This document shows positions 3,187 to 62,328 of a stretch of DNA of 64,000 nt, piece by piece. The notes beneath the pieces were generated by a model that saw nothing but the letters and a program-made list of their open reading frames with translations, had not been told where the DNA came from and searched no databases. The first letter of the stretch is position 1; the number at the start of each line of letters is the position of its first letter. A program made the translations under genes and the position numbers. The DNA lies in NCBI GenBank assembly GCA_041658255.1, contig JBBAAQ010000001.1, forward strand, positions 100,368 to 164,367. The letters are read 5' to 3'. The stretch comes from Candidatus Woesearchaeota archaeon (lineage in GTDB: Archaea > Nanobdellota > Nanobdellia > Woesearchaeales > UBA9642).

Positions 3187-4224
3187 ATGCTCCTCAAATC
3201 CCTTCCTGAAGATTTTATGGTTGAAGAATTGCCTGCATTCCAATTACTGGAATCAGGACCCTATGCGATCTATAGGTTGTGGAAGTGCAATTTCAATACT
3301 GAAGATGCCATTCAACTCGTCTGCAAGAGATTCAATATCCGCAGGAGTGATGTTAAATTTGCAGGCACAAAGGATCGTAATGCGATAACCACGCAATATA
3401 TTTCAATACACCGGAATAACCGTAAACTTGTTCTCGATGAAGAGAATATTAAACTCGGATATTGTGGGTTTGCAAATGAACCGATAAGTCTTGGATGTCT
3501 TGCAGGAAATACATTCGAATTAATCATCCGAGATATCGCTCCTGAAGAACGCATAATTTTTGAACAAAACATGCATGCATTATCTGACACTGATGCGTTC
3601 TATCTTCCTAACTACTTCGATGAACAGCGATTCTCAACAAATAATGTTGCTATCGGACTATGTATCCTGAAAAATGATTTTAAGGGCGCAATTGAACACA
3701 TCAAAAATTCTGCGCAAAAAGAGGGATATTATGAAAAAGAGGCAGTAGAACATCTTGCGCGTTTGCCAACTGATTATATTGGTGCATTAAAAAAGATCCC
3801 GCCAAAAATCTTACTCATGTATATCCATGCAGTGCAATCAAAAATATATAATGAATTATTACGACAATCAATTATTGAATTGGATGAACATGCGCGCGAT
3901 ATTCTCTATTCTCAAGGAATATTTGCATTCAGTCAGGATTATTTGGTATATACTCGTTTATGTGATCACTCATTACCGCTTCTCGGATTTTCGACACCTT
4001 CAACACCTGCATTGAAAAAACAAATCGATGCATTAAGTATTACTCCACGTAATTTTATCATCCGTGCAATCCCGGAACTCAGTTGTGAAGGGACTGAGCG
4101 AAATGCAATGATGCATGTCATAAATTTCACATCAGAAAAGATTGACGACACAACTCTAAAACTCTCATTCACCTTACTGAAGGGTTGTTATGCGACAATG
4201 GTTGTGAAAGGATTGTTCAATTGA
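3187..4224 (+). CDS. truD: tRNA pseudouridine synthase, TruD/Pus7 family
   Basis: N-terminal PEDFMVEELP and FAGTKDRNAITTQY closely match the TruD PEDFVVxE / FAGQKDKHAVTEQW catalytic region. Confidence 0.75.
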   Translation: MLLKSLPEDFMVEELPAFQLLESGPYAIYRLWKCNFNTEDAIQLVCKRFNIRRSDVKFAGTKDRNAITTQYISIHRNNRKLVLDEENIKLGYCGFANEPISLGCLAGNTFELIIRDIAPEERIIFEQNMHALSDTDAFYLPNYFDEQRFSTNNVAIGLCILKNDFKGAIEHIKNSAQKEGYYEKEAVEHLARLPTDYIGALKKIPPKILLMYIHAVQSKIYNELLRQSIIELDEHARDILYSQGIFAFSQDYLVYTRLCDHSLPLLGFSTPSTPALKKQIDALSITPRNFIIRAIPELSCEGTERNAMMHVINFTSEKIDDTTLKLSFTLLKGCYATMVVKGLFN

Positions 4225-5441: not shown

Positions 5442-6335
5442 GTGATAACAAGTTTAATAACTGTTTTATGGGGGATAAAAATGGCAAAGGATATAAAAGA
5501 CGAATTATCAGATAAATTATCAGGAGCACTTAAGTTCGGAAAAAAAGCTTTCGCTATCGGCAAAGAAAAGCTTGTAGAGAAAACAGAAGAACTTAAAAAA
5601 AAGTATGATAGTAGCGTTTCGATACAGACCACTGTTGGTGCAGTAAAAGGCGCGGCAGATTCATTCAAAAAAACTGTTAAAACAAAAATTGATTATAAAA
5701 TTTCTGATCTCCAAACCAAAGCAGATGGCGGCGATGAATTTGCAAAATCTATTCTTGACGTTAAAAACGCTGTTAGTGAACAATATACTACGATCAAAAG
5801 TTACTGTGCTACATTATTTAAGACAGGAGAAAAAAATCCCGTCAATGAATTTATGCCGGGATATGCGACACTCATGCAGATCATTGATGCAGAGACTGCA
5901 ACAGAAGGCAAGAAGCAATATCAACGCGACTTTAATGCAACAACCAGAATTTCTGTTGATAAAGGTGAGCGAAAAGTATTAGTAAAGAGCCATCCTTTTA
6001 TCTCTATTGAATCAAGAAAACCTGAAGAAAAACTTGAGACAAAATGCACTATTGCATTCAATTATGATGTAGGATCAGGAGTTCAATATAACAAAATCAT
6101 CGCTGACATTGCAAAGAATGCAGTTGATTTTGTGCAAAAAGAGATTATCCCAGCGCAAACAGGATCCTATAATGGCAAGAGCGCAATGATTGCTAATGCC
6201 GGAGATTCAGCTATTGAATATGTCATTGAAGCAGCATTCAATAATAATGCGTTGAAACTCTCCTATATACCGAACAATAAGTTCAGTCCTGAAGTTGTTA
6301 TCACACAGACAATACTTTCGGACGAGAAAAAATAA
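5442..6335 (+). CDS. hypothetical protein, first gene of a seven-gene unknown operon (probable start ATG at 5481 after a GGGGGA SD)
   Basis: ORF; gggggataaaaATG at 5481; lysine-rich N-terminus. Confidence 0.5.
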   Translation: MITSLITVLWGIKMAKDIKDELSDKLSGALKFGKKAFAIGKEKLVEKTEELKKKYDSSVSIQTTVGAVKGAADSFKKTVKTKIDYKISDLQTKADGGDEFAKSILDVKNAVSEQYTTIKSYCATLFKTGEKNPVNEFMPGYATLMQIIDAETATEGKKQYQRDFNATTRISVDKGERKVLVKSHPFISIESRKPEEKLETKCTIAFNYDVGSGVQYNKIIADIAKNAVDFVQKEIIPAQTGSYNGKSAMIANAGDSAIEYVIEAAFNNNALKLSYIPNNKFSPEVVITQTILSDEKK

Positions 6336-6388
6336 GCTTAGAGAAAACACACACGTAGAGTCACTCTTTATATAGCGCATATATCTCT

Positions 6389-7768
6389 ATGTATATAGGA
6401 TATCGCGCTATAGAAATCGGCAGGGATACACACAACCCTGTTTTTAAAACACACAGTGAAATAAACAAAAAAACACAAGGTGAAAAAATGGGAAATGAAA
6501 CTGATGATACTACAGAAAATAAAAATGCATTAGTAGGAACAAAACATCAAGAGAATTCTCTTGCACTAAACGTACTGAATTATTCAAATGTCAGCGCGCA
6601 ACGAGCAAAGGATGAAAATGACATTGAATCATTAGGCAAAGCACTAGATGTCGAGGTCAAGGAAGCAAGTAAATCGGCGTATGGCGGCCAGAATGGTCTT
6701 ATTATTATCGGACAGGGAATACGGCATTGGAATCTTCCCATGATAAAAAATGGACTCAAAAAGATAACAGGCCGGCGAATCAGCCTTTCAGATATTCTCA
6801 AAGCGCAATATGAAGGATTTTGCGATTCCCGGGACAGGATCAATGATCGTGTTTCAGAAAGCAAGCAATCAGTTGCCGGTCTTCATGCAAACTTAGTCGA
6901 TAATGCAAAACACCGCGTGCGGCTTGGTGAAGAACTTAAAGCACATTATAGTAATATTACTAAATATAATGATAAGATTTTTGCATTAGAAAAATCAAAG
7001 AATGAGTTGAATCCAAACGCAGAGAATTATACCACTCTTGTCGCAAATGCCGATTTGAGTCTCGCACAAAAAAGACAGGAACTGATGAATGAGACCACTA
7101 ACTATAATATTAAATCAGGACAATCCAAGATAGAGAAAGAGACCTATGATCTTTTTACTATTCTTGCAAAAGAAGCAGAGGCAGGACTCCCGCATTTGAT
7201 CATTCTTCATGAGACAGTCAAGGGTCGTGTTAATCAGGCTGATGCAGTCATCCAATATCAGTCAAAAGCGATCACTACTGCTGAAACGGTTATGGACGCA
7301 GTCAAGACATATGGAGAGATCAAAGCAACACTTGAATATTCGAATAATGCTCTTGCCTTATTCAATGAAAACTTCAGTACCATCACCGGGTATATCGCAA
7401 ATACACCTCTTATTGATGAGAAGAGTCTTGCAAATCGTGTGAATAGTATAAGAATATTGAATGAGGATACGAATAGATATCAGTCGCAATTAGCATCGGT
7501 AAATGGAAATCATGAATTTGGAGAAATGAACCTTGCTGATTGTTATTCCTTTTTGGGTTGCGAGATTACTGCAAAACCAAAAGAGATTGACGAAGCGCGC
7601 AAAAACATGCTTCTCAACAAAGGATTGCATCCGGATATGAAAAACGCCGATTTAAGCGTTGAAGAACAGAGTAAATTGACGAGAAAGGTCGAATATTGTG
7701 CAAACGTTACATCGACATTTGCACAAATGGGGGATAACCCGACACTCCGAAAATTAATTGGTCAATAA
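6389..7768 (+). CDS. hypothetical coiled-coil-rich protein (probable start 6488 after an AAGGTGA SD)
   Basis: ORF; alpha-helical/coiled-coil composition; no catalytic motif recognised. Confidence 0.5.
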   Translation: MYIGYRAIEIGRDTHNPVFKTHSEINKKTQGEKMGNETDDTTENKNALVGTKHQENSLALNVLNYSNVSAQRAKDENDIESLGKALDVEVKEASKSAYGGQNGLIIIGQGIRHWNLPMIKNGLKKITGRRISLSDILKAQYEGFCDSRDRINDRVSESKQSVAGLHANLVDNAKHRVRLGEELKAHYSNITKYNDKIFALEKSKNELNPNAENYTTLVANADLSLAQKRQELMNETTNYNIKSGQSKIEKETYDLFTILAKEAEAGLPHLIILHETVKGRVNQADAVIQYQSKAITTAETVMDAVKTYGEIKATLEYSNNALALFNENFSTITGYIANTPLIDEKSLANRVNSIRILNEDTNRYQSQLASVNGNHEFGEMNLADCYSFLGCEITAKPKEIDEARKNMLLNKGLHPDMKNADLSVEEQSKLTRKVEYCANVTSTFAQMGDNPTLRKLIGQ

Positions 7769-7803
7769 AATAGTGAGCGACCATATGGTGAATACGCGGG
7801 TCG

Positions 7804-8916
7804 GTGAGAAACATGGTTGCGCCAACTATTTTGAACTTTAATCGTGCTGCAAAACAGCACTATATTGATCAACTGACGCAATCCATGGATAAGCTTTCTT
7901 CGGAACTCTATAAATCAAACGTGGTCCGCACCAATGTTGCTTCCTATTACGAGACCTATACGAATATCATCAAGATTTATGGCATTGAGGCATATGCAGA
8001 AAATATTTCTGATCTTTGCGTGAGCAACATATCAGGATTTCCGATGTATTCGCGTATTATTGAACTCGTGAATACGCAAAAAAAATCCTTTGCAAATATG
8101 GTGCAGCTGAGAAAAGAGGAAGACATTTCGCGCGACGCCATTGAATCGCTTTATACGAACAACCAGTCCGCATTTGAAGTCTTTATATCTGAATACTGCC
8201 GAAAAAATTATTTAAGCAAACTTTCTGAATTAGTCGCTTTTAAGGACATTACTAAACTTGTTGAAGAGAAGAACACTGATGAAAGAATGGTGCGATATTC
8301 ATTTGATTATGCAGCATATCCGCTTTCAGAAATGTCCTGCGTCACTGTTTCTCTGGATGCTTCAATGATCAAGTCGATCAAACCATTCGCTTCTAAACCA
8401 AAACTTCCGCTAGATAAGATAAAGAAGTATGCAACTGAAGATGTGCGTACACTGTATGAAATACTCAAAGATCATAAGGCATATCCTGCGGTGATAGAGA
8501 AAACTCAGCCTTTCTTTAATTTTTATGGCAGGGACATCAAGGACCCGCTTATCCGCAAGATTATCTTTGATCATCCTCAATCTACAATCCTTCAATTGAA
8601 ATTTTCGAAGATTGAAAATATTGATGTGCTCCTTGCAGAAAACATCTTTCAACTGAAACGTTCTATTGATGAAATCCCTGTCTGGAGCACTAATTCCATC
8701 TATGTGTGTCCTCTTGAGATCAAAGATTTACTTGAAGATGGACTTATGGAACAATTTGAACAAGGGACCCGGGGACGTCCTGAACCTTTTAAGATCATCA
8801 CTTACAAAAAAGCATTCGGACCGAATGCAGCAGTGCAGGAATCAGACGGGAAAGAGCTCGATGTAAAAGAACCAGGCAACACAATTCATAAAATAATATT
8901 AGGAGGGGGACCATGA
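7804..8916 (+). CDS. hypothetical protein (probable start 7813)
   Basis: ORF; stop overlaps the next start (ATGA at 8913). Confidence 0.5.
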   Translation: MRNMVAPTILNFNRAAKQHYIDQLTQSMDKLSSELYKSNVVRTNVASYYETYTNIIKIYGIEAYAENISDLCVSNISGFPMYSRIIELVNTQKKSFANMVQLRKEEDISRDAIESLYTNNQSAFEVFISEYCRKNYLSKLSELVAFKDITKLVEEKNTDERMVRYSFDYAAYPLSEMSCVTVSLDASMIKSIKPFASKPKLPLDKIKKYATEDVRTLYEILKDHKAYPAVIEKTQPFFNFYGRDIKDPLIRKIIFDHPQSTILQLKFSKIENIDVLLAENIFQLKRSIDEIPVWSTNSIYVCPLEIKDLLEDGLMEQFEQGTRGRPEPFKIITYKKAFGPNAAVQESDGKELDVKEPGNTIHKIILGGGP

Positions 8917-9179
8917 ATAAGAAAGAATTATCGGACACTGTACTCATCGATGATAGAACCTTAAAAAATATTGTGGGAAAACTTGTTTTTGGGTATATCG
9001 CATATCAAATCGGATCGGTCTTAGGGGATTATTGTGCAGTTGTTGGGGCATATGTCGGTCTACGCGCGAATTATTACAAAATGCCTACGGATCAATTATT
9101 TACGATGACATTTCGTACCTATGACGAGGAAAAAAAACACGATGAAGAGCGAGAACAACAGAAGAAGAATGCGCCGTGA
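8913..9179 (+). CDS. small single-TM membrane protein
   Basis: 88 aa; hydrophobic LVFGYIAYQIGSVLGDYCAVVGAYVGL; preceded by a GGAGGGGGA SD. Confidence 0.45.
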   Translation: MNKKELSDTVLIDDRTLKNIVGKLVFGYIAYQIGSVLGDYCAVVGAYVGLRANYYKMPTDQLFTMTFRTYDEEKKHDEEREQQKKNAP

Positions 9180-9292
9180 ACAAAGGAGCATCGTGTTCAG
9201 TTTTGAACGATGCATCATCGGCATAACAATGCAGATCAGATAAAACGCAAAAACATACTACTTACTATCGGCTTAATATCGGAGAAAAACAG

Positions 9293-10690
9293 ATGACCAT
9301 ACAATCATTTATTATCGATGGAGAAAAGGCGGATCAGTATCGCGCATTCACTCAATCTATTGATAGATTCGTGGGCGAAGGTGCTGATGGTTCGTCCGCT
9401 GTTCAAATTGATCGCAGAGGTGTTGAATTGCTGCCTTTGAAACGCCACGGATTTAGAAGCCAACTCTTCTCCAAATATTTTGTTATCGCCGATCACGCGC
9501 AAATTGAATATACTGCTGAAATCCTCAAAAACCTTCATGATGACGAGTTTTTGAAGGGTCCATCGCTTATTGACGAATTGATGGTGAGTGTATACCAGAA
9601 GAATAAAGAACTTATCGATCATTTGCTTAAAGACCAGATTATTATCGGCAATGTTCAGGTGTGGGGCATGTTTGATAGTGATAAAAAGAAGTTCAGGAAC
9701 ATTTTCGATACTATTGAATTTGATCAGATTGCGCTTCGGCATGATACTGCGTATCGTGATGTTATCGGAAAACCCACTTCATGGGTAATAGAATACAGTA
9801 TTGATACGCCCAAAAAGGATATTTCCCGCCTTCGGGAAATCTCTGCAAAAATTTATGAACTTGCGATGCATCACGAGCGCATTCTGGATAAAGATTCATT
9901 GTATGCATTGTATGAGGAATATATCCCGTTCTTTAGATCATATGGCGATATCCGGACATATCACTTAGAAAATACAGAAATGCAGGTATCTTCTCCTGCA
10001 TTTTTCAAGTATGTCACGTCCGATGCGACATATTTTGCATGGAGCGGAAAGAATGGCTCGCTCATCATTAATACCGGTACGGAACTGATCAAAAATCCAT
10101 CTATCCAGACGACAACAAATGCGAAAAAAATATTGCGTTTTTTGCAGGAAAATGATTATACGAGGATAGATAAAAAAGAATTAGAATCAGTGCTCAGAAA
10201 TATCGAGAATGATTATATCATCCAGCATGCACCAAGCATCATCGATTCTGCGAATTCAACCGAGGAAGATATAAAATTTATTCAAAAGATTGCGTCTGAA
10301 ACTCCTGACACTGCTCTTGAGCGTATGCGGTTTCTGAATAAATATATGTACACGTTTTCCCATGCTGATGATAACCTTCGATTCTGGAATAGTCTGAGTT
10401 CACTGCGCAAGACAGGAGACACGTCTTTTTTGACTGCAGAAACAGTCGTGATGTTCACTAAAAATGCGACTGATTCTTTGCTTGTTGATGAATTTTTAGA
10501 TTCACTCGGTCTCACTGATTATTATCTACTCCAGAAAACAGATCTGGAAAAATTCAAGAGACGGTATCTGAGGCTGTCCCACGAGGATCGCGCTTCTGTA
10601 GCAGTAAACTTTCATATCATGATGGATAAGGGGAATGATATTTCTCCGGCTACACGTGAATTTATGACAAAAGAAGGGTGGTTTCAATGA
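9293..10690 (+). CDS. hypothetical protein
   Basis: 465-aa ORF; overlaps the next gene start. Confidence 0.5.
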   Translation: MTIQSFIIDGEKADQYRAFTQSIDRFVGEGADGSSAVQIDRRGVELLPLKRHGFRSQLFSKYFVIADHAQIEYTAEILKNLHDDEFLKGPSLIDELMVSVYQKNKELIDHLLKDQIIIGNVQVWGMFDSDKKKFRNIFDTIEFDQIALRHDTAYRDVIGKPTSWVIEYSIDTPKKDISRLREISAKIYELAMHHERILDKDSLYALYEEYIPFFRSYGDIRTYHLENTEMQVSSPAFFKYVTSDATYFAWSGKNGSLIINTGTELIKNPSIQTTTNAKKILRFLQENDYTRIDKKELESVLRNIENDYIIQHAPSIIDSANSTEEDIKFIQKIASETPDTALERMRFLNKYMYTFSHADDNLRFWNSLSSLRKTGDTSFLTAETVVMFTKNATDSLLVDEFLDSLGLTDYYLLQKTDLEKFKRRYLRLSHEDRASVAVNFHIMMDKGNDISPATREFMTKEGWFQ

Positions 10691-12861
10691 GTGATCATGT
10701 GGCCACGATGAACGATAAGACAACTATCGATACGCTTATCGAACAGACAAAGAAGGAACAAGAGCAGAAACGTATTAATTTTGTCGTTGCAGCATTAAAT
10801 AAGCTTAAAGATCAGTTTCAGATTTCAGAAAAATTCATCAAGGAACCGATTCAGAACAGTATTGATGCAGGCGCAAGCCGGATTGATATTACTGATCAGT
10901 ATGATACTGAGAAAAATCTCGGATATATCACTATTCAGGATAACGGAAGCGGCATGAGCGAGAAAACCATTCGCGAGTACCTCCTTAATAAGTTTGACAG
11001 TTCTAAGGATGCGGATATCACCAAAATCGGCAGATTCGGTGTAGGATTTGTGTCGCTTTTTGCACAGGACGATCTTGAACGCGTGATTGTACAGACAAAT
11101 GACGGTAAAGAAGAACATCGTGTCGTACTCCTCCCCCCAAAATACGGCTGGAAGGGAACTATCTTTAAAAAGAAGGGGACCATTTTGGCATCTGATCGTG
11201 GAACAACAGTCACGTTGGAGATAGCATCGAAAAAAACCGCATTTGAAGGCACCATCAAAAAAGTCTACACTGATATCGATAATTCTTGCGCGTATACTAC
11301 CGCACCACTCTTCGTACAGGGAAAACAGGCCAATAAAGAGTTTAATATCCCTGATGCAATCTACCAGATGCGTTTTGGAGGATCTGAAATTGAAGGAGTG
11401 ATAGGATATACCACTGATACTGCAGCAACATTCAGTGCCTTTTTCAATAGGCGGCTTCTGGTATCGCATGAATTTGTCCCATTGTTCTCTGAACATAAGG
11501 ACCTTTCCGTCATGGTAAGTTCGTCCTATATTGATTATAATATTTCCCGTGATAAAATTATTAAAAATAAGAAATATGCGCAGATTGTCAATCTTGTCAA
11601 AAAGAAACACGACCAGATCATCTTTTCCATGATGCGTGATATTGAATCAGAAATCAATTATGGTATCGAGGAAAGACCAGTATACCGCTCTGAACCTGAT
11701 TATTCTAAACTTCCGGATTCTCCCGGTTCTTTTTTCAATAATCTTTCATCCAACTTTACACTCACTTCATCGAATAATTGGTCATTACGGAAAAGTAATA
11801 TCGTGACCTATGAGAAATCGCTGGTGTTTACCGGCAACCAGTTTAAATTCAATAAAATAATCGGGTATGTTGAGAAATCACTGGAAAAAGAAAAAGAGCA
11901 TCGTCCGGCGCGCTCAAAGATAAAAAGGGCGTTTCATCGGATCAAAAGGCGTTTTACAAAAGATCTTGACCAGATGCTGGGGTCTCTTTCTGACGAAGTG
12001 CGTGAAACGAAATTATTTACTGCGATTAAGTACATAAATAAAGCTCCACGATTTCAGAAAGTCTCTCTTAATGAAATTATGGACCAGGCGCTCCAGTATA
12101 AAGGCATTCTTGCTGCCAATCAATATGATACATTAAAACTCAGCGAAGTATCCCTCGAGTTCTTGCGGTCAGGAAAAATACTTATTCCCGATGTTCTTTC
12201 ATTTCATGATCCGCAAAATAAACTGCTTTCAAAATTCGGGTCGTATATTAACGTTGACCGCGCATATTCGGCACCCAGTTATGAAAACGAACAGTTTCTT
12301 GAAGAATCAGAAAAGAATTTTCTGGCTGCATTTCGCACGATTGTCGATAAAAGTCCATTAAGAAAACATATCGGCGCAGTGGCGTATGGTCGCAATCTCT
12401 CAAAAGAAAAGCCTTATGATATTGATACCGTATATAATACCATCGGCAAAAAATCTGTTTATGCAATGAAACAATCATGGAAGAGTCGCTTGTCTGGAAC
12501 ATTTCTGGACCGTAAAACGATGTTTCTGAACAGGACGAATGGATATATGCAAAAAGCGATCCAATTCAGTTCAGGGAACGATTATTCATTCCTTTCCTAT
12601 GTTTCTTTACTTAACTCTCTTGCGTATGAATTGATTCCTGAGGACAAGAAAATAACCCGAAAAATGGAAAACTTTGTTGCGACCTATTTCAAAGAGGATA
12701 TCTCCCGAAAAGATTCGCTTTTGGATGAACTTGATCCGGCGGCAGGCACTGCGACAGAAGCAGTCCCGCCTTCACTCTCAGATGGACTTACCGCAGGAGA
12801 CAGAGCCGAGATTTTACAAAAAGGACTTGTTCCCTCAAAGACTTATGATGATGACTGGTGA
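10678..12861 (+). CDS. Hsp90/GHKL-type ATPase domain protein (Bergerat fold) with a long C-terminal region
   Basis: EPIQNSIDAGASRIDI (N-box), ITIQDNGSGM (G1), IGRFGVGFVSLF (G2, Hsp90-like IGQFGVGFYS). Confidence 0.65.
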   Translation: MVSMSDHVATMNDKTTIDTLIEQTKKEQEQKRINFVVAALNKLKDQFQISEKFIKEPIQNSIDAGASRIDITDQYDTEKNLGYITIQDNGSGMSEKTIREYLLNKFDSSKDADITKIGRFGVGFVSLFAQDDLERVIVQTNDGKEEHRVVLLPPKYGWKGTIFKKKGTILASDRGTTVTLEIASKKTAFEGTIKKVYTDIDNSCAYTTAPLFVQGKQANKEFNIPDAIYQMRFGGSEIEGVIGYTTDTAATFSAFFNRRLLVSHEFVPLFSEHKDLSVMVSSSYIDYNISRDKIIKNKKYAQIVNLVKKKHDQIIFSMMRDIESEINYGIEERPVYRSEPDYSKLPDSPGSFFNNLSSNFTLTSSNNWSLRKSNIVTYEKSLVFTGNQFKFNKIIGYVEKSLEKEKEHRPARSKIKRAFHRIKRRFTKDLDQMLGSLSDEVRETKLFTAIKYINKAPRFQKVSLNEIMDQALQYKGILAANQYDTLKLSEVSLEFLRSGKILIPDVLSFHDPQNKLLSKFGSYINVDRAYSAPSYENEQFLEESEKNFLAAFRTIVDKSPLRKHIGAVAYGRNLSKEKPYDIDTVYNTIGKKSVYAMKQSWKSRLSGTFLDRKTMFLNRTNGYMQKAIQFSSGNDYSFLSYVSLLNSLAYELIPEDKKITRKMENFVATYFKEDISRKDSLLDELDPAAGTATEAVPPSLSDGLTAGDRAEILQKGLVPSKTYDDDW

Positions 12862-15800
12862 CGATCATGAAAAAAATAACTAAACGCAAAACCGTCAAAC
12901 AACAGGAAACCTCCGATGGAGAATCAAACAGCGGATCAGATACTCTTGATGTGCTTGTTGATGATGGGTTTCAGCAGGTTGGCGGGGGAGATGATGATTT
13001 TATATGGAAAATCAATCAGGAAAAGATGCAATTAAAGACAACTGCAGCGCTCCTTCCTGACCCGAATGATTATATTCTTGAGTTGTTTTCTTTTGTCCAC
13101 AACACCTCACCATCAAAAATTAAAGTAAAGACAAAATATTCGCAAACAGAAATCGTCGGCGATGGTCATGGTTTTGACCTTGCAGATCTGGATTCGTTGA
13201 TGTCGGTCTTTTTTGTCGTTCCTGATGATAGTGCAGATCTCTATAAACGATTCGGAGGACTCGCGACCGCCATCTACTCTGCAATCAACACCTCTGCATC
13301 TAAGATCGTGATTGAGACGAGAAAAGACAATGTTTCTCTGCGGTATACGGTTCGGGCAGGAACATATAATGCAGCCAATCTGAATGAGCGCATAAATTCT
13401 ATTCGATTCGGAGAAAATAAGATCTCTTTTACTCATGATGAAAAATCAAGTGTGAAAAGCGGCGTGAAAATCACTGTTTCAAAAAATGTTCCGCTCAAAA
13501 ACAAAATTATTGATATTGTCCGATTTAATACCAAAGGCATTGAATTTAACAAAATAAAAAATTATTGCGCGCAGTCGCTTACGCCCACTTTTTTGAATAA
13601 TGTTGATATCTGGGATCGGGGGTCTCTGGAAAAAACTGCTTTTTCCGCCAGAACTTTTTTTACTTCTTCCAATAAATTAGAAAAATATGAATTGAAGATT
13701 ACGGAAAAGAAATTTAATGCAATACTCTGGCTTGATTCCCGTAAATATATAAATAAATTAACACTTCTCCGGTCAGGAGTCAATCATCCTTTTGATGATT
13801 CTAATGTTTATGCGATGGTTCCGCCCTTTCCCGAATCAAATCTCATCCTCGATAGTCCGTATTTCCAGGTGCACATGGATAAGTCGGGAAAACTGAAGGA
13901 GATCCCTTACCTGGCGCGTGATTTTACAAATCCATTAGAAAAACATTTTTCTGAGTTATACACCCAGATCATCAATGATTTCATTCCTCTTGCGGATAAA
14001 AAATCTTCAAAGGATTTTTCTTATGAAGATCATAGCAACTATAATCTTCTTGAGCCGCTCATTCATGAGATGATACGGCGTATGGACCATAACTTTATTG
14101 TTGATAAAGACAAGTATCCTGCTGATGATTACCGAAAAAAATTATTAGACCTGCCGCTCATCAAAATCATAACCAACCCTACTGCTCCCGACGAATATAT
14201 CTCATTTAATACACTTCTTGATACTTATAAGTCTAAACAAATCTATACTACCGGCAGGACCTTTCCCGTGCTATCTCCTGATTGGAATGAGGGCAATTTA
14301 TTGTGCAGAACTGATAATCTTTTGAAACGATTCTGCGAAGAACATGCTGTTCCGTTTCAGGATTATGATGAGATAGTTAATGCGCGGAACGCAGATCAGC
14401 GGAATAAAGAGAATCTTGAACGTAAAATTCTCAAAGAACAGCTAAAAGAGCAGAAAAAAACAGAATTCAAAAAAAAGAGAAACGCATTTTCTGAATTACT
14501 GTCATATCTTTTTAAGTGGAGTAATAATTCTACAAAAAAATCACGGGGTAATGTTTCTGTAGGCGATTCATTAAGTACTATTGTCAGTGGTGCGGGATTA
14601 ACCACTATTGGTACGGTGAGTATGGTAGGTGCAGGTCTCATCATGCTCCCGGTACTTGCTCCTCTGGCTGTTCTCTGTTCAGTAGCATATTTGGGGAAAA
14701 AAGGTAAAGAGTACGCTGCTCCGCATGCACTGTCGTTTTACACAAAGGCTCAGCAGTTCTATGCTGCGCATCTTGAAGAGAGAGTGCAAAAAACAAAGCT
14801 TTCATTCTCTGCAAAATATACTGCATTCAAGACAGGATATCGTCAGATGAAAACTCGTACCGGAACAAAAATATCACATGTCTATGATAGCGCAAGTCAT
14901 GCAGTTACAAAAACAACCAGTGCCATAGGTTCAACTGTTGCTTCAGGAGTTACTTATGTCTCGACAAAGGCCTATCATGCAGGATCAGCATGTATCCGGC
15001 CAGTTGCCCGTGCAGGTTCCTTTGTGTATTCTGAAACAATTCAGGGAATATCCGGAATGTATTCTGCGACAAGTGATGCATTTGTTTCGCTGAAAGAAGG
15101 ATATGCTCAATTTCGCCGTGATCGCAAAGAACGATTCAAAACTAATCGCATGTTGCGGACCCAGCGTGAAAAGGAGAAGATATCAGCATATGAAGCGCTT
15201 CATCCTGAAGAATCTTCTACAGAAAAAGCGCGGATACAGCGAGAGAAACGCGCTGAAAAAGACAGGCGATCAATTGAAAAACAAACGAAGAGATTAGAGA
15301 GGAAACAAGCGCGCGAAAATTTGCGGGAAAAGTCCCGGGAAGAACGCAAGAAATTAAGAAGAGATGCGCAATTAAAAGAAGAGCAGGAATTAATCGACAA
15401 ATATAATGTTCTTAAAGATCAGCATATTACAGGCGCAAAATCTATTTTTGACGCATACACCAAAGTGGTGGACAAATATGGCGTACTGAGAAACATATTC
15501 CCAAAATTTGGCTTTGCGCTGGCCAAATATCCACGGATGGATCCTAAGACAAAAAATGTCATGTTTGAAGATAAATTCTTTTTTTCTTCAAAAAAATCTG
15601 CGATGTATCCCAATTCCAATCAGCCATATACGATCAGTCTTCCCGAAGGGCTTTCGCTGTTACATCGCGATAGAACATATCAAGAGCCTCGGACTACCGG
15701 AAGGGCAGAAGTCTACGTTGACACCCGTTCAAAAGAAAATCTTGAGTATGGAAAAGCAATCGGGTCAAGAAAAGGATTTTTTGCATTAGCGCCGTATATT

Positions 15801-16190
15801 ATCGGCTTATTTGATCATGAGAAGAATCTTCGTTATTCGACTCAGGATAGGACAGAAACACTTTCTTTTTATGATTCGCGGATGAAAGATTCATATACGC
15901 AGTATAAACGGGCGTTTGATAATGAGACCCCATTAAGCATGTTGGTCCTTGACTTTTATGGAAAAGTTTTTGAGGAGATCAAAGATGCAAAAGTATATCA
16001 CGCCATTGATCTCTATCATGCAGGCAATGAAACCGCATTCATCCAGACTTTTGAAAAGCTTTCTGATGAAGAGGTCAGAAAAACAATTAAGAAATTGGTG
16101 CGGATGGATACGCCAAACCAGACTATTGATGCATATGTGGCAAATAAATGTTCTGGTCTTATTGAAGAAATCGGCAGAGCAGAGATATAA
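12858..16190 (+). CDS. large (1110 aa) protein with a degenerate GHKL-like N-terminus, TM segments and a highly charged coiled coil
   Basis: ILELFSFVHNTSPSKIKVKT..EIVGDGHGF..FGGLATAIYSA resembles a degenerate N-box/G1/G2; hydrophobic GLTTIGTVSMVGAGLIMLPVLAPLAVLCSVAYLG; K/R/E-rich repeat region; ATGA overlap with the upstream gene. Confidence 0.55.
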   Translation: MTIMKKITKRKTVKQQETSDGESNSGSDTLDVLVDDGFQQVGGGDDDFIWKINQEKMQLKTTAALLPDPNDYILELFSFVHNTSPSKIKVKTKYSQTEIVGDGHGFDLADLDSLMSVFFVVPDDSADLYKRFGGLATAIYSAINTSASKIVIETRKDNVSLRYTVRAGTYNAANLNERINSIRFGENKISFTHDEKSSVKSGVKITVSKNVPLKNKIIDIVRFNTKGIEFNKIKNYCAQSLTPTFLNNVDIWDRGSLEKTAFSARTFFTSSNKLEKYELKITEKKFNAILWLDSRKYINKLTLLRSGVNHPFDDSNVYAMVPPFPESNLILDSPYFQVHMDKSGKLKEIPYLARDFTNPLEKHFSELYTQIINDFIPLADKKSSKDFSYEDHSNYNLLEPLIHEMIRRMDHNFIVDKDKYPADDYRKKLLDLPLIKIITNPTAPDEYISFNTLLDTYKSKQIYTTGRTFPVLSPDWNEGNLLCRTDNLLKRFCEEHAVPFQDYDEIVNARNADQRNKENLERKILKEQLKEQKKTEFKKKRNAFSELLSYLFKWSNNSTKKSRGNVSVGDSLSTIVSGAGLTTIGTVSMVGAGLIMLPVLAPLAVLCSVAYLGKKGKEYAAPHALSFYTKAQQFYAAHLEERVQKTKLSFSAKYTAFKTGYRQMKTRTGTKISHVYDSASHAVTKTTSAIGSTVASGVTYVSTKAYHAGSACIRPVARAGSFVYSETIQGISGMYSATSDAFVSLKEGYAQFRRDRKERFKTNRMLRTQREKEKISAYEALHPEESSTEKARIQREKRAEKDRRSIEKQTKRLERKQARENLREKSREERKKLRRDAQLKEEQELIDKYNVLKDQHITGAKSIFDAYTKVVDKYGVLRNIFPKFGFALAKYPRMDPKTKNVMFEDKFFFSSKKSAMYPNSNQPYTISLPEGLSLLHRDRTYQEPRTTGRAEVYVDTRSKENLEYGKAIGSRKGFFALAPYIIGLFDHEKNLRYSTQDRTETLSFYDSRMKDSYTQYKRAFDNETPLSMLVLDFYGKVFEEIKDAKVYHAIDLYHAGNETAFIQTFEKLSDEEVRKTIKKLVRMDTPNQTIDAYVANKCSGLIEEIGRAEI

Positions 16191-16537: not shown

Positions 16538-18508
16538 TCATTCCTCCTTCATATCGACGCCATACACATTTCGTATCTTACTCATCTTTTGTATTAATGC
16601 AGCAATGTCTTTCTCAGGATTCTCTTCGATACCAATGGTGATGACTGCATGGTCTGATTTGCCGAATTTGGTATTGATGGTCTTGACATTAAATTTTTCT
16701 TTCGCAATAAGGGTGAGTATCTCTGCAAGCAGGCCGATGCGATCAACCACATTGACGTGAAGATTATGGATCTCCAGTACACTCTCGCTCACCTGTGGTT
16801 TGATTTCTGATTTTGCATCATAGGCGTGCAGATTGATACAATCAGCCTTATGAATGGCAATCTTTCCATCCCGGGTCTTGAATGCACGGATTTTATCACC
16901 CATTTTTGGATTGCAACATTTTGGGATCTTCACATTAGGGACTTTTCCATTATAGAGGATGTTTCCATCCTTAAATTCGAGTCCGCGCGTCTTAGACCTT
17001 TCTAATCCCTGATTACGTTTAACTTTATCCGGAGGTTTTGGTGCTTGTTCGTATTCGATGCCGAGTGCCTTCTTGATCTTGACCTTGGTCGATGCACTCT
17101 TCACAAAACTGAGCCATGCACGTGAGGGCATGACATTCTTTTGTGTAATGATCTCAACAATATCTCCTGAAGATAATTTATGATCGAGCGGTACAATGAT
17201 TCCATTCACTTTTGCAGATTTGCAATGAGTGCCTACATCACTATGGACTGCATACGCAAAATCAACTGGTGTCGCGCCTTCAGGGAGTGCAATCGTATCA
17301 CCCTTGGGTGTGAATACAAAAATCTCTTTCTGGAATAAATCCACTTTCAATAATTCTACAAATTCATGGGCGTCTGCAGATTTTTGGCGCCAATTAATGA
17401 TTTGTTTAAGCCATTCGAGTCGTCGATCAAACCGCTTATCCTGCTCCTGCTCCTTATACCGCCAATGCGCAGCGATTCCTTCCTCTGCAGCAAAATGCAT
17501 CTCTTGGGTTCGTATCTGTACTTCAAGGATTCGTCCATGACTGCCACGTACCGTGGTATGGAGTGATTGGTAATTATTAGATTTTGGGGTCGCAATATAA
17601 TCCTTGAATTTTTTTGGGATAGGTTTCCATATCTTGTGCACAATGCCGAGTGCGGCGTAACATTCTGCAACAGTACTCACAATGATGCGTATGGCATTTA
17701 AATCATAGATCTCTGAGAATTCCTTATTATCAGTTTTCATCTTCTTATAGATGCTGTAGAAATGTTTTGCCCGTCCATACACTTCAGCTTCAATACCGCC
17801 ATCCTTGAGTGCTTGCCTGATCTCTTTGATGATAATTTCAATCTGTTTTTCGCGCTCGTCACGTTTGAGCGAAATCTTGTTCTTGAAATCCGTATAGATT
17901 TCAGGTTCAAGGAATCGGAATGAGATATCTTCAAGTTCAGATTTTACAGAATTCATCCCAAGCTTATGGGCGATGGGTGCGTAGATATCCATGGTTTCCT
18001 GCGCAACAGTTTTTTGTTTATCCCGCGACCGGTACTTGAGTGTGCGCATATTATGTAAACGGTCAGCAAGTTTGATGATGATGACACGAACATCCTTGGC
18101 TGTTGCGAGAATGATTTTACGGATATTTTCTGAACGCATATCGCTGGGTTCATATATCCGTGATTTCTCATCAATCTTTTTTAATTTAGTCAGTGAGATG
18201 ATGAGTTCAACTGTTTCCTTATCAAACTCCTTTTGGATGGTTGTGGCAGTCACTGGCGTGTCTTCAATAACATCATGGAGTAATGCTGCAGCAATCGAAT
18301 GATAATCCATCTTGAATTCTGCAACAGTCATGGCAGTATTATAACAATGCGTAAAATATTCATCACCGGATTCACGTTTCTGTCCTTTATGCGCGTCATA
18401 AGCGAATCGTACTGCCTTCTCAACGAATTTAAGGTCTGCCTTCGGATTATAGGATTCAACTTTCTTAAGCAGTACGAGAGTCTGCTGTTTAAGTTCTTCA
18501 TCAGTCAT
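16538..18508 (-). CDS. relA: bifunctional (p)ppGpp synthetase/hydrolase, RelA/SpoT homolog (HD + synthetase + TGS + ACT)
   Basis: 656 aa; HD motif LLHDVIEDT; synthetase-region similarity; C-terminal TGS/ACT-like region. Confidence 0.85.
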   Translation of the reverse strand: MTDEELKQQTLVLLKKVESYNPKADLKFVEKAVRFAYDAHKGQKRESGDEYFTHCYNTAMTVAEFKMDYHSIAAALLHDVIEDTPVTATTIQKEFDKETVELIISLTKLKKIDEKSRIYEPSDMRSENIRKIILATAKDVRVIIIKLADRLHNMRTLKYRSRDKQKTVAQETMDIYAPIAHKLGMNSVKSELEDISFRFLEPEIYTDFKNKISLKRDEREKQIEIIIKEIRQALKDGGIEAEVYGRAKHFYSIYKKMKTDNKEFSEIYDLNAIRIIVSTVAECYAALGIVHKIWKPIPKKFKDYIATPKSNNYQSLHTTVRGSHGRILEVQIRTQEMHFAAEEGIAAHWRYKEQEQDKRFDRRLEWLKQIINWRQKSADAHEFVELLKVDLFQKEIFVFTPKGDTIALPEGATPVDFAYAVHSDVGTHCKSAKVNGIIVPLDHKLSSGDIVEIITQKNVMPSRAWLSFVKSASTKVKIKKALGIEYEQAPKPPDKVKRNQGLERSKTRGLEFKDGNILYNGKVPNVKIPKCCNPKMGDKIRAFKTRDGKIAIHKADCINLHAYDAKSEIKPQVSESVLEIHNLHVNVVDRIGLLAEILTLIAKEKFNVKTINTKFGKSDHAVITIGIEENPEKDIAALIQKMSKIRNVYGVDMKEE

Positions 18509-18624: not shown

Positions 18625-18981
18625 TTATAGAATTACTTTTCTTTTATCTAAATCAAAGACCCCATTTACAGTGATGAGAATGGCATCTTTAACAGTATAC
18701 CCGTTGTTTTTTTTAGTGCAGATATCTATATATTTTCCAGAAGAATAAATTTTTACTTCGCCTTTGATGCGATAATATCCGCCTATGACACAGATATGTT
18801 TATTTTTTTTAAGATTTTGGATTGTGGTTTTCATCTGACAGTTGGCAACAAGCAATTTGCCGTCTATGAATCCTGTCGAGATAACAATATTTGCGTTAGG
18901 GATGCCCTTTTTTGACGATGTTGCAAGCACGAGCTCCTTTCCTTCTTTAAAATTATTTTTCCAATCCATGATTATGACCAC
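18625..18981 (-). CDS. PNPOx-like FMN-binding split-barrel family protein (putative)
   Basis: 118 aa; pattern resembles pyridoxamine-5'-phosphate-oxidase-like/general stress protein 26 folds; weak. Confidence 0.45.
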   Translation of the reverse strand: MVIIMDWKNNFKEGKELVLATSSKKGIPNANIVISTGFIDGKLLVANCQMKTTIQNLKKNKHICVIGGYYRIKGEVKIYSSGKYIDICTKKNNGYTVKDAILITVNGVFDLDKRKVIL

Positions 18982-19072: not shown

Positions 19073-20362
19073 TCACCGAAGCTGCATCAGAAAGTTATTA
19101 TTAAGATTTTTCAGGTTTGTAAGCACAATCTCTTCTATCAGGGAGGAGAATTTTTTATCATCACGCTTTTTCGACCGTTTAGTCAAATCAAGATAGGAAT
19201 CAAAATATCCTATAGGTAATTCCAAAACCAGGATATTATGCATCCGCAATATATGCAGCATCAATAATCGCGAGATTCGGCTGTTGCCGTCCCGGAATGG
19301 GTGTATTCTTTGGAATTCGTTATGAAAGAATGCTGCAAAAGATATTATTTCTGCAATATTCTTTTTCGTGCTTTCAAATAAGATATACTCTTTCATGAGT
19401 TTATCGATTTTTCTTTCTACATCTTTCCAATCACTCGTCTCAAATAAGGGATTTTTTTTTATGAACACATTTTCTTTTCTGAATGTTCCGGCGAACCCTT
19501 TTCCATTCATTGCAGTTGCATGATAGTGTAATATGAGCGCGGTGCTCAGTACAATTTTATTTTTCGAGTTTATGATCATCTGTTCTATGGCTCTCTTATA
19601 ATTGAGTGTCTCTTCGATGAACTCTGCCTTTTGATCTTCTGGCACAATATTTTTTATGAGTAATTTTTCTGTTTCAGGAAGCGTTAATGGATTACCTTCG
19701 AGGCTGAGACTTGAATAGATAAATCCTATCTCCCGATGTTTTTCTTGAATATCAAGGGATTGACTATCTATTCGCATGTTGCGACGGTATCTTTTGAGTT
19801 CACGTGTGATATCTACTATGTGTGAGCGGTTCTTTTCTTTGTAAAACTCTGTTTTTATGTTGAAATAGTTAAGGATCTTTTTTATGTATTCACTCTTCAA
19901 CAATTTGCATTTCAAAGGATTTCTCGATACGATGATGAGAAGGCCATATGTCGATAATGCATCAGTATAAAATCGGAATGTTTCGGGATGGATTTTAATA
20001 TCGTTTATGGTGAAGAATTCCTTTTTTGCCGCATATTTTAAAAAATAGAGCATCTTGGACTTGAATAGGATGTTATAGTTGATGCTGTTTCGTAAAGAGA
20101 AGGAGATAAGATTGAATAATTCTTGCGTAGATGTTGCATTGACTATGACGATATGCTTGCCGCTTCTTTTTACTAAATTCTTTTTTTCAAGAAGTAATAT
20201 GTTATTGAATATGTTCGGGTATTCCTTCCGGTCTTTGCCGAGTTCTCTAATTATTTCATTTACACGTATTTTTCCATTCTTTGCCACAATGTAAAATACA
20301 TCATAAGGCGAGACCATGATAGTTATACGTGATGCAACTTTAAAAAGGTTTCTATTTTCCAC
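19073..20362 (-). CDS. Fic/DOC family protein with an N-terminal wHTH-like region; non-canonical Fic motif HPFRDGNSR
   Basis: HPFRDGNSRISR near the C-terminus (canonical HxFx(D/E)GNGRxxR with the second Gly replaced by Ser). Confidence 0.7.
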   Translation of the reverse strand: MENRNLFKVASRITIMVSPYDVFYIVAKNGKIRVNEIIRELGKDRKEYPNIFNNILLLEKKNLVKRSGKHIVIVNATSTQELFNLISFSLRNSINYNILFKSKMLYFLKYAAKKEFFTINDIKIHPETFRFYTDALSTYGLLIIVSRNPLKCKLLKSEYIKKILNYFNIKTEFYKEKNRSHIVDITRELKRYRRNMRIDSQSLDIQEKHREIGFIYSSLSLEGNPLTLPETEKLLIKNIVPEDQKAEFIEETLNYKRAIEQMIINSKNKIVLSTALILHYHATAMNGKGFAGTFRKENVFIKKNPLFETSDWKDVERKIDKLMKEYILFESTKKNIAEIISFAAFFHNEFQRIHPFRDGNSRISRLLMLHILRMHNILVLELPIGYFDSYLDLTKRSKKRDDKKFSSLIEEIVLTNLKNLNNNFLMQLR

Positions 20363-20410: not shown

Positions 20411-20467
20411 CGCATTTTACATTTACGTTGTTTTATTCAACCCATCAAGAATCCGGAAGATTTCCGA
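20411..20467 (-). promoter_or_regulatory. conserved upstream motif, copy C (upstream of the Fic gene)
   Basis: contains GGAAATCTTCCGGATTCTTGATGGGTTGAA on the minus sense, plus a degenerate copy of the TAAAT-rich part. Confidence 0.45.
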
Positions 20468-21064
20468 AGCGACCTCGGGGATGGGTTTATTACCATCAAC
20501 CGTATAGAAGATCCCGTCTCTGTGATAGAGTGGTGTTATTGCGGTTGTCTGGGAATAATAGATTTGAAGTCGCTTCCTGATCTGTTCAGGTTTATCATCA
20601 TCTCGCTGGACGAGTGGCGAATGGCACTTGTCACATTCTCCATCAATCTTCGGCTTTAACGTGATAAGATTATATCCCTCACCACATTGGGTACACACTC
20701 TCCGACTTGATATTCGTGCAATGATCTCATCTTCAGGAAGTGTGATCTCTATTGCTGCATTTATTTGGAAATGGGATTTCAAGAATTCGTATTGTGCAAC
20801 ATTGCGCGGGTATCCATCAAGAACGATCCCGGTCTTGAAATATTCTGCATGTGCAAAAATGACTTCGTTTGTTTTATCGTCAGGGATAAGTTCTCCAAGA
20901 ACATTGATCGTATGATCAATCCATTTGCCGAGTGCTGTTCCTTTCTTGATCTCTTGCCGGAATGCATCACCAGTCGAAAGATGCTTGAGTTGGTAATGCT
21001 CTGCAACACGTTGAGATTGTGTCCCTTTACCTGATGCCTGTGGTCCAAAGATGATGATGTTCAT
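20423..21064 (-). CDS. adk: adenylate kinase (long type with Zn-finger lid)
   Basis: P-loop GPQASGKGTQ; lid CTQCGEGYN..CDKC; 213 aa. Confidence 0.9.
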   Translation of the reverse strand: MNIIIFGPQASGKGTQSQRVAEHYQLKHLSTGDAFRQEIKKGTALGKWIDHTINVLGELIPDDKTNEVIFAHAEYFKTGIVLDGYPRNVAQYEFLKSHFQINAAIEITLPEDEIIARISSRRVCTQCGEGYNLITLKPKIDGECDKCHSPLVQRDDDKPEQIRKRLQIYYSQTTAITPLYHRDGIFYTVDGNKPIPEVASEIFRILDGLNKTT

Positions 21065-62042: not shown

Positions 62043-62300
62043 CTCATCTCGTGCTAGACTGGGCGGTTAGTCCTCGCCTGTTACTCCAAACGGACTTTAG
62101 GGAGGGTCGAAGCCTAGGGAGCGGTTTTATGGATAGTGGCAGTCCTTAACGTACTGTCGATCCTTTGTCCTCTTTGACTTTTTTCCTTACGAACCGGATC
62201 AGACCAGGAATGGAGCAGTCCTCAGTTTTGAGAAGGGTGCTTTGAGGGTTGCGGAGGGGAGGGAAATTAAGGAACCAACTGTTCACTATCCACATCATCC
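62043..62300 (+). ncRNA. ffs: candidate SRP RNA (GC-rich island with a domain-IV-like motif)
   Basis: ccGGAUCAGACCA-GGAA-UGGAGCAGUCC resembles SRP helix 8 (GNRA-type loop, 5' UCAG / 3' AGCAG asymmetric loop); pyrimidine-rich strand opposite GGAGGGGAGGG suggests G-U-rich helices; local GC far above background; boundaries approximate. Confidence 0.45.
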
Positions 62301-62328
62301 ATCCTTAGGCGTGCACACTTCTTTCATT

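Follow-up and report, generated by a model that had tools for sequence, protein, structure and literature searches.

Two adjacent genes of a Candidatus Woesearchaeota archaeon, referred to here as ORF A and ORF B (ORF, open reading frame), are the subject of this analysis. They lie in a stretch of 64,000 nucleotides (nt) that was analysed as a whole and is called the window below. It covers positions 100,368 to 164,367 of contig JBBAAQ010000001.1 and has a G+C content of about 38%. ORF A (10678..12861, + strand) encodes a divergent Hsp90-like ATPase whose active site is intact. ORF B (12858..16190, + strand) encodes a protein of 1110 amino acid residues (aa) that can be described as a pseudo-Hsp90 partner. 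It shares the N-terminal and middle domains of ORF A, and its nucleotide site is degenerate. Both ORFs had been described in an initial annotation, which was made from the sequence letters without database searches, and both are confirmed as described there.

The two genes are packed closely together. ORF A is 727 aa long if translated from GTG 10678 and 724 aa long if translated from ATG 10687. The second start is more likely; a separate gene caller, applied to the public contig, chose it, and it overlaps the stop codon of the 5' gene as ATGA (10687-10690). The gene caller starts ORF B at GTG 12858, which gives 1110 aa. This codon shares the sequence GTGA with the TGA stop codon of ORF A (12859-12861). 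An alternative start for ORF B, ATG 12867, comes with a Shine-Dalgarno-like GGTGA at 12857-12861.

ORF A

ORF A carries a complete Bergerat-fold signature of Hsp90 flavour, as the initial annotation had stated. Residues 51-130 match the Pfam family HATPase_c_3 (E 8.8e-13, 48.9 bits, cut-off 25), and the GHKL motifs are all intact. Motif I (E-x-x-x-N) consists of E56 and N60 (10843-10845 and 10855-10857, + strand), with D63 close behind. Motif II (D-x-G-x-G) is D88-N-G-S-G92, with D88 at 10939-10941. The G-x-x-G-x-G lid is G118-R-F-G-V-G123 and belongs to the sequence GRFGVGF (residues 118-124, 11029-11049), while motif IV (G-T) is G175-T176. These motifs are invariant in an alignment of 19 sequences. 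The middle domain contains the loop N-I-S-R-D (residues 288-292, 11539-11553), to be compared with L-N-L-S-R-E in Hsp90. ORF A thus has the N-terminal and middle architecture of Hsp90, including the catalytic arginine loop.

Comparison with known structures leads to the Hsp90 family. When the profile of the A family is compared with the sequences of the PDB, all 60 matches listed are Hsp90-family proteins or proteins named Hsp90-like. The profile aligns with HtpG over its positions 21-450, including a pairing of LsRD with vSRE (E about 2e-14). Its positions 29-529 align with TRAP1 49-615, also at E about 2e-14 and nearly to the TRAP1 C-terminus. Against HtpG the profile scores 56 bits across the N-terminal (N), middle (M), and C-terminal (C) domains. 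Likewise, all 50 PDB matches listed by Foldseek for an AlphaFold2 model of ORF A belong to the Hsp90 family. The model matches Hsp90, TRAP1, GRP94, and HtpG (E 1e-17) and aligns with full-length Hsp90s over 730-790 columns. Sequence identity in these structural alignments is 12-16%.

ORF A therefore sits with Hsp90, HtpG, and TRAP1, but far below the cut-offs of the HtpG family. The HtpG model NF003555 gives 33 bits against a cut-off of 371, and the “HSP90 family” model PRK14083 gives 27.7 bits against 455. Neither protein is thus an ortholog of canonical HtpG, one of two outcomes that the initial annotation had named as undoing its proposal; this identity was rejected on the first of these scores. 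Among curated models, NF047352, which describes the N-terminal ATP-binding domain of sacsin, comes nearest to the N domain of ORF A (E 9e-11, 42.1 bits, cut-off 50). The Pfam family SACS (PF25794) is matched at E 1.5e-5 with 25.4 bits, where the cut-off is 32.8. Since both sacsin models stay below threshold, ORF A is not assigned to the sacsin repeats. A Pfam search extended to E values of 0.1 returned HATPase_c_3, SACS, and HATPase_c, and no other family.

The initial annotation had also drawn a comparison with MORC proteins. This did not hold: MORC or MutL identity was rejected, as all fold matches listed (50 of 50 for both models) and all profile matches listed (60 of 60) are to Hsp90-family or Hsp90-like proteins. 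MutL is matched at 17-35 bits by the N-terminal core of ORF A only, mostly over the first 40-75 residues of the domain.

A set of 17 universal Hsp90 marker residues has been published, in the numbering of human HSP90AA1 (Chen et al. 2006, PMC1525184). The positions are Y38, REL46-48, N51, D54, G95, G97, GQFG132-135, G183, P379, and SRE399-401. By alignment, ORF A retains about 11 of the 17 (the E, N60, D63, G90, G92, G118, F120, G121, G175, S290, and R291). Others are altered (F47 for Y, K55 for R, P57 for L, R119 for Q, D292 for E), and P379 cannot be placed. Judged from its residues, ORF A is a full-length Hsp90-type protein with N, middle, and C regions, in which everything expected for the binding and hydrolysis of Mg-ATP is present.

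The C-terminus of ORF A (12817-12858) is an acidic tail that ends in KTYDDDW and resembles the short peptide motifs with which some Hsp90s end. This tail is not kept in P0003 or P0004.

ORF B

Residues 63-500 of ORF B (13044..14357, + strand) form an Hsp90-type N-terminal and middle domain with a degenerate nucleotide site. BLASTP of ORF A against ORF B gives no match, and a comparison of A and B profiles built from three sequences is merely suggestive (Prob 8%). Clear homology emerged with deeper family profiles. The relatives of ORF B are few, with 11 or 12 found when HMMER was run exhaustively against 1.84 billion cluster representatives. A word-indexed protein search, run twice, had missed all of these homologs, so that the exhaustive search was needed. 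ORF B has no match in Pfam, NCBIfam, or PADLOC and no meaningful match in PHROGs. Metagenome contigs scanned with B-family patterns also yielded nothing.

With the deeper profiles, the N-terminal part of the B family aligns with the A family at hhalign probabilities of 98.3-99.0% (E 2e-14 to 5e-18). Full-length family profiles align B66-376 with A47-323 (98.5%). Controls with a reversed A profile and with two unrelated families from the same cluster gave probabilities of 0.1-0.2% (E about 0.4). Furthermore, A-type proteins are matched directly by the hidden Markov model of the B family.

The fold of ORF B was also predicted independently of ORF A. An AlphaFold2 model of residues 1-530 (12858-14447) was built from B-family sequences only and without templates. 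Its predicted local distance difference test score (pLDDT) is 75, rising above 90 across much of residues 70-250. All 50 PDB matches listed by Foldseek are members of the Hsp90 family (TRAP1, Hsp90, Hsc82, GRP94, HtpG). The best has an E value of 2.6e-17, and the alignments to Hsp90 N and M domains extend over 424-611 columns at probability 1.0. When the B-family profile is compared with PDB sequences, the best match is again TRAP1, weakly (E 0.003), and three distant B members each match HATPase_c weakly and independently. The N-terminus of ORF B is thus a Bergerat fold. The initial annotation had allowed that it might not be a GHKL domain at all; the model folds as an Hsp90-type GHKL domain followed by a middle domain. 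Because the profile comparison has clean controls and a model made from B sequences alone matches Hsp90, ORF B is confirmed as a true paralog of ORF A over the N and middle domains, with an Hsp90 fold.

The state of the nucleotide site can be read from an alignment in which 9 sequences of the A type and 14 of the B type were put together. All 9 A-type sequences keep E..QNS.DA, D-[NDY]-G-x-G-M, and K-[IV]-G-[RK]-F-G-[VI]-G-F. The catalytic loop reads SR[DN] in 7 of the 9 and ARK and TRD in the other two. The catalytic Glu is kept not only in all A-type sequences, but also in all 14 of the B type (E75 in ORF B). The Mg-coordinating Asn is kept in the A type and in 0 of 14 B-type sequences, which have F, V, I, T, A, or M instead (F79 in ORF B). 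The same division is seen for the G-x-x-G-x-G lid, which is kept in the A type and in 0 of 14 sequences of the B type; ORF B reads FGGLATA at this place. The adenine-binding Asp, also kept in the A type, is G101 in the B subgroup of the window and is kept in P0028, P0029, P0031, and P0032. Finally, the middle-domain Arg is kept in the A type, while the window's B subgroup has Lys (HMDKS). Distant B members keep this Arg (N-L-S-R-N) and combine it with D-[DN]-G-x-G.

ORF B thus retains the Hsp90 N and middle fold, with Arg changed to Lys in its subgroup, and has lost the Mg-coordinating Asn, the adenine-binding Asp, and the Gly-rich lid. As far as residues can tell, its nucleotide site is dead. 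The initial annotation had pointed to the motifs ELFSFVHN, VGDGHGF, and FGGLATAIYSA in ORF B, and these are real, kept in homologs, and in register with the motifs of ORF A. Its reading of an E...N pair in ORF B was half right: E75 is the catalytic Glu, but N82 aligns with D63 of ORF A, and the position of the Mg-coordinating Asn is F79. Its view that the second protein is degenerate at the ATP lid and the Mg-binding site agrees with the loss of both the Asn and the lid in 14 of 14 B-type sequences.

The B-type protein with the most canonical motifs is P0031 (E-D-N-G-V-G-I, N-L-S-R-N). It belongs to a locus with a variant layout (L046, 224-5311). Here, a 412-aa protein without a detectable GHKL domain is followed by P0031, and a homolog of the 465-aa accessory gene described below sits downstream of the B gene.

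Conservation of the gene pair

Close homologs of ORF A that have enough downstream sequence are all followed by a homolog of ORF B. The wider family was surveyed in 116 fetched loci, by taking strong A-type ORFs that have 600 nt or more of sequence downstream. This gave at least 43 testable loci. Among the matches listed, a B-type ORF on the same strand follows the A-type ORF in 40 of 43. In loci with called genes, the stop codon of A as a rule overlaps the start of B, by 4-11 nt (L047, L044, L051, L003). Together with the GTGA overlap in the window, these overlaps bear out the tandem coupling proposed in the initial annotation. ORF A and ORF B are tightly coupled and are predicted to be co-transcribed.

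Two further observations go beyond that annotation. One is a conserved J-domain gene upstream of the pair, and the second concerns bacteria, where the pairing is widespread. With the hidden Markov model of the B family, B-type N-terminal modules were also detected in GC-rich loci, several of them named as Myxococcota or related metagenome-assembled genomes; here, a gene for an A-type protein of 530-600 aa is immediately followed by the B-type ORF. The core pair is far commoner in such loci, which are presumably bacterial. B proteins are longer and more variable than A proteins, with lengths of 790-1239 aa in archaea and about 1250-2100 aa in bacteria. Only the N-terminal module of B is common to both groups.

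The pair can also be duplicated as a whole. One archaeal contig carries three tandem A-B pairs (L047, 2490-17636; L056, 5901-14184), which measure 708+1115, 680+935, and 704+905 aa. On their 5' side are a J-domain protein and homologs of the 370-aa and 465-aa genes of the window, and on their 3' side are four small genes without assignment. The divergence of the A copies is mirrored by that of the B copies. A2 and A3 are 61% identical, B2 and B3 are 40% identical, and A1 and B1 are both more distant. One bacterial contig carries two A-B pairs. Because adjacency is conserved, and because tandem pairs show matching divergence of A and B, the pair is the unit of inheritance and duplication in archaea and bacteria alike. 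Within it, B evolves faster than A. Within the literature that could be searched, no description of this active/dead module was found.

A different kind of pair was seen in two other loci of Woesearchaeota (L008, 9554-14280; L012, 134-4179). A distant GHKL protein (793 and 633 aa) is joined by a 4-nt overlap to a transglutaminase-core partner, which carries a C-terminal hydrophobic segment. These loci were rejected as members of the family, as the partner is transglutaminase-like and the GHKL protein is more distant.

C-terminal regions of ORF B

Beyond its Hsp90-like module, ORF B has a single membrane-type segment. Residues 579-614 (14592..14699, + strand) are a Gly/Ala-rich hydrophobic stretch of 36 residues, with Pro598 and Pro602 at its centre and a Kyte-Doolittle peak of 2.34. 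The initial annotation had described two hydrophobic helices. Its membrane-type segment is present, but as one stretch broken by prolines and not as two. An equivalent hydrophobic segment of 22-39 residues with an internal proline (usually [AS]P) occurs in 10 of the 11 archaeal B proteins examined. The stretch probably forms a membrane helical hairpin, so that the parts of the protein before and after it would lie on one side of the membrane.

The hydrophobic stretch is followed by residues 620-750 (14715..15107, + strand), which a composition scan shows to be rich in Gly, Ala, Ser, and Thr (about 50%) and which can be aligned in L002. Next come about 100 residues rich in Lys, Arg, and Glu (751-850; 15108..15407, + strand). 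Here, the initial annotation had proposed a heptad-like coiled coil of about 120 aa. Glu, Lys, and Arg make up 53% of the region. Because strongly hydrophobic residues account for just 16% and heptad a/d occupancy reaches 25% at best, a canonical coiled coil was rejected. From its composition, the region looks like a charged single helix or a linker.

The protein ends in a C-terminal domain of about 160 residues (950-1110; 15705..16187, + strand), which is conserved across the archaeal B family. This domain has no match among PDB sequences. In Pfam it has just a sub-threshold match to BPTA (E 0.0007), in 1 of 11 members.

Accessory genes

In archaea, the pair is accompanied by further genes. 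The window encodes a probable J-domain protein of 459 aa with a long helical N-terminal part (6389..7768, + strand). The predicted J domain comprises residues 384-428 (7538-7672), with the HPD motif at 414-416 (7628-7636). The Pfam family DnaJ is matched at E 0.018 and 15.6 bits, below the cut-off of 27.8. The 424-aa protein in the same position in L056 exceeds this cut-off (E 1.1e-10, 41.8 bits). The homolog in L044 is 26% identical to the protein of the window (E 4e-33) and keeps the HPD, which is invariant in a three-way alignment of the positional orthologs from the window, L044, and L056.

Two more accessory genes lie between the J-domain gene and ORF A, and homologs of both occupy corresponding places in L001, L044, L047, and L056. 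The first, of 370 aa (7804..8916, + strand), has no match in Pfam, NCBIfam, PADLOC, or PHROGs. The second, of 465 aa (9293..10690, + strand), has the stop codon that overlaps the ATG of ORF A, and its relatives have weak matches to DUF6638 only. Between them, the gene caller places a small ORF of 88 aa on the public contig (8913..9179, + strand), which overlaps the previous stop codon by 4 nt. Jackhmmer found no counterpart of this ORF in the other loci.

Gene neighbourhood

The pair is part of a run of genes on the same strand, from about 5442 to 16190, in which gaps are short or replaced by 4-nt overlaps. On the 5' side of this cluster is TruD (3187-4224). On the 3' side, a group of genes on the opposite strand begins with a full-length bifunctional RelA/SpoT of 656 aa (16538-18508, - strand), which has HD, RelA_SpoT, TGS, and ACT domains. 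It is followed by a PNPOx-like gene (18625-18981, - strand), a Fic-domain gene (19073-20362, - strand), and adenylate kinase (20423-21064). Long RelA/SpoT enzymes are typically bacterial. For this reason, the full-length RelA/SpoT of this Woesearchaeota archaeon, beside its PNPOx-like and Fic genes, looks horizontally acquired.

TruD and adenylate kinase thus enclose the whole cluster together with the RelA/SpoT, PNPOx-like, and Fic genes. On the contig of P0022, the closest homolog of ORF B, the pair sits immediately upstream of TruD, which is itself followed by adenylate kinase. The neighbourhood has been rearranged locally between the two contigs.

Elsewhere in the window are genes for two very large proteins. 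In one, of 1622 aa, a subtilase is fused to a type I phosphodiesterase (32112-36980, + strand); the other, of 2067 aa, contains metal-binding motifs of the MopE type in repeated form (54327-60530, + strand). An archaeal signal recognition particle RNA is found at 62047-62320 (+ strand, 116.5 bits) and marks the window as archaeal. The TruD, PGK, and RelA proteins encoded in the window are identical to NCBI entries for a Candidatus Woesearchaeota archaeon.

Proposed mechanism

Hsp90 works together with Hsp70 and J-proteins, and the two protomers of Hsp90 or TRAP1 act asymmetrically. The preferred model for the pair, with a probability of roughly 45%, is a divergent Hsp90-like machine that is driven by ATP and built asymmetrically, with ORF A and ORF B as its two subunits. 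In this model, A and B would associate as an Hsp90-type clamp in which the A protomer alone turns over ATP. The pair would be a hard-wired version of the asymmetric ATP cycle of TRAP1 and Hsp90. Such an A:B heterodimer is suggested by the conserved adjacency of the genes, by their overlap, and by their co-duplication.

In the archaeal form, the hydrophobic hairpin of B would tether the complex to the membrane on its cytoplasmic face. The charged segment and the C-terminal domain of B may engage a client or a partner. The J-domain protein encoded upstream would recruit an Hsp70 encoded elsewhere and hand its substrate to the pair. Sacsin unites such elements in a single polypeptide, which has Hsp90-like modules and an Hsp70-recruiting J domain (PMC3710099). 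The likely role of the machine would be the remodelling or assembly of a membrane-associated protein substrate.

A broader form of the model is put forward with slightly more reserve. The pair may represent an ancient and undescribed Hsp90-like heterodimer that is obligately asymmetric, with one catalytic and one pseudo-ATPase protomer, and that extends from Myxococcota-type bacteria to DPANN archaea. Its archaeal form would be anchored in the membrane and would have its own J-domain protein and two cofactors. It might constitute a new branch of Hsp90 and sacsin with its own class of clients, or possibly serve a new membrane-associated function in stress or against viruses.

Several observations weigh against an asymmetric Hsp90-like machine of this kind. 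Hsp90 dimerises via its C-terminal domain, and in profile comparison the C-terminus of ORF B is unlike that of ORF A. The confidence of the ORF A model is moderate (pLDDT 67, predicted TM-score 0.46). Membrane insertion and topology of ORF B are predicted from hydropathy alone. No Hsp70 gene or signature motif was found in the 64-kb window. The archaeal accessory genes have no homolog in any bacterial locus by Jackhmmer, and L051, the sole bacterial locus with called genes, has no J-domain gene listed. Bacterial B partners also have no comparable hairpin (two were examined). Since bacterial loci thus have neither the accessory genes nor, in those two partners, the hairpin, the archaeal accessories may reflect a lineage-specific use of the pair. 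Finally, both families are patchy and evolve fast, with 22-40% identity among archaeal members, and this would also fit a conflict system.

The last point leads to a different model, in which the pair is a module for conflict, defence, or membrane integrity. The ATPase would sense an invader or be switched by it, and the membrane partner would be an effector or a guard of the envelope. A loose analogy would be the single-protein system Tiamat (TmtA) or, from the other side of the conflict, the phage genes rIIA and rIIB. The initial annotation had hinted at such systems, and the families are indeed rare, patchy, and fast-evolving, with tandem expansions. The Gly-rich hydrophobic segment of archaeal B could perturb membranes, and Fic and RelA/SpoT genes lie just downstream on the other strand. 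In PADLOC, the closest match to the GHKL core of A-type proteins is TmtA (E 4.7e-10 for ORF A, 1e-13 for an A protein of L047). However, the TmtA profiles have lengths of 1300-1800, of which these matches cover about 75-100 residues, and they are confined to the GHKL domain, as is a match of ORF A to MzaB. B and the accessory genes have no PADLOC match other than chance-level E values of 0.002-0.03 for two accessory genes, and the search for effector domains, such as a nuclease, a protease, or an NADase, found none. The phage analogy can be traced to the B model, whose next-best viral structure match after giant-virus Hsp90 is RIIA; in phage T4, rIIA is followed by the membrane-associated rIIB. 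Yet neither ORF A nor ORF B matches the RIIA family of PHROGs, the A profile matches T4 RIIA over the N domain only (15 bits, compared with 56 bits for HtpG), and RIIB is unrelated to B. Viral contigs have no relatives of the pair beyond a generic GHKL core, so that a viral origin was rejected as well. The contig of P0022 keeps the pair beside TruD and adenylate kinase, which speaks for a stable chromosomal location, and a dedicated J-domain protein is a hallmark of chaperones. A defence role thus appears unlikely, and the hint of the initial annotation was not borne out.

It is equally doubtful that ORF A is an ordinary Hsp90-like homodimer, with ORF B as a membrane scaffold, an adaptor, or a regulated client whose dead module docks on A or competitively inhibits its N-terminal dimerisation. 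Homodimerisation is plausible given that the A model aligns with full-length Hsp90 and the A profile nearly reaches the TRAP1 C-terminus. B lacks a detectable Hsp90-type C-terminal domain, it is much longer and more variable, and just its N-terminal module is common to both domains of life. On the other hand, conservation of B extends through the middle domain, including the region of the catalytic loop, and thus beyond a surface patch. The Glu that is invariant in all B proteins would be hard to explain for a mere docking domain, and the strict one-to-one co-duplication of A and B fits a stoichiometric complex. A machine for membrane remodelling or for the cell surface in DPANN episymbiosis, for instance at sites of host contact, could also be imagined. 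Closure of the clamp would then be passed to the membrane via the hairpin. The hairpin, the charged helix, and the accessory genes do occur only in archaeal clusters (Woesearchaeota/Nanoarchaeota), and the window also encodes very large surface-type proteins. But the core pair is far commoner in GC-rich loci, where B has no hairpin in the two cases examined, which suggests that its core function is not specific to DPANN. No similarity to known membrane-remodelling proteins was found, and this explanation is considered quite improbable. The asymmetric machine of two Hsp90-like subunits is retained as the preferred model.

Significance

Few chaperones have been studied as much as Hsp90, and the reason for the asymmetric action of its two identical protomers is under debate. 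If the proposed heterodimer is real, it would provide a natural model of this asymmetry, in which one protomer is permanently dead and has been kept so in both bacteria and archaea. It would also be a prokaryotic, multi-gene counterpart to the arrangement of Hsp90-like modules and J domain in sacsin. The two-gene module is common in soil and sediment metagenomes, with at least 43 testable loci, and it carries no annotation. Hsp90 itself has been reported as missing from most archaea (PMC3708813, PMC12874294). With the pair, if correctly interpreted, the DPANN archaea would gain an Hsp90-type system that has its own dedicated J-protein.

Comparison with known systems

In addition to Hsp90 itself, several systems resemble the pair in part. 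Among phage proteins, RIIA is the first kind to appear after giant-virus Hsp90 when the B model is compared with the viral structures of BFVD (E 1e-14 to 1e-10). In phage T4 (L117/L118), rIIB begins 11 nt after rIIA, and both are annotated as membrane-associated. The A-family profile aligns with the N domain of T4 RIIA (hhalign 94.5%, E 8e-8). The T4 genes are thus an adjacent, membrane-associated pair in which RIIA is Hsp90-like in fold. However, RIIB shows no similarity to ORF B, and membership of the pair in the RIIA/RIIB families was rejected.

Tiamat TmtA has an N-terminal GHKL core of the same flavour as the A-type proteins. Residues 34-129 of ORF A match positions 59-149 of a TmtA profile with 1486 positions, and relatives of ORF A match likewise. 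TmtA is a single large protein, whereas here ORF B and the accessory genes remain unmatched. In the absence of a full-length match to the TmtA profiles, membership in Tiamat was rejected. Eukaryotic MutL-alpha (MLH1-PMS1/PMS2), as is well known, also consists of two paralogous GHKL subunits that handle nucleotides unequally. In MutL heterodimers, both sites still bind ATP and the fold beyond the N domain is different; the pair has no endonuclease domain.

The closest likeness is to the Hsp90 family. Common features are the E/N/D/G motifs of the Bergerat N domain, the S-R-[DE] loop of the middle domain, the N-M-C layout, and a probable link to a J-protein. An intrinsic asymmetry of protomers, as is well known for TRAP1, would be shared as well. 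Unlike the Hsp90 homodimer, the pair is encoded by two genes, one of which has a dead site. Archaeal B differs further by its predicted membrane hairpin, its charged segment, and its unrelated C-terminal domain, and no MEEVD-type tail is conserved in the pair.

Sacsin, which is found in animals and slime moulds, has three Hsp90-like repeat regions together with a J domain and a HEPN domain. Like the archaeal clusters, it joins Hsp90-like modules with a J domain. In the archaeal clusters, these parts are separate, prokaryotic proteins, with no ubiquitin-like or HEPN domain, and one of the modules has been systematically inactivated. The superfamily of Hsp90 and sacsin is thus already known. What would be new is a system of this superfamily with a hard-wired pair of active and pseudo-active subunits, to which DPANN archaea would have added a predicted membrane anchor and a dedicated J-protein.

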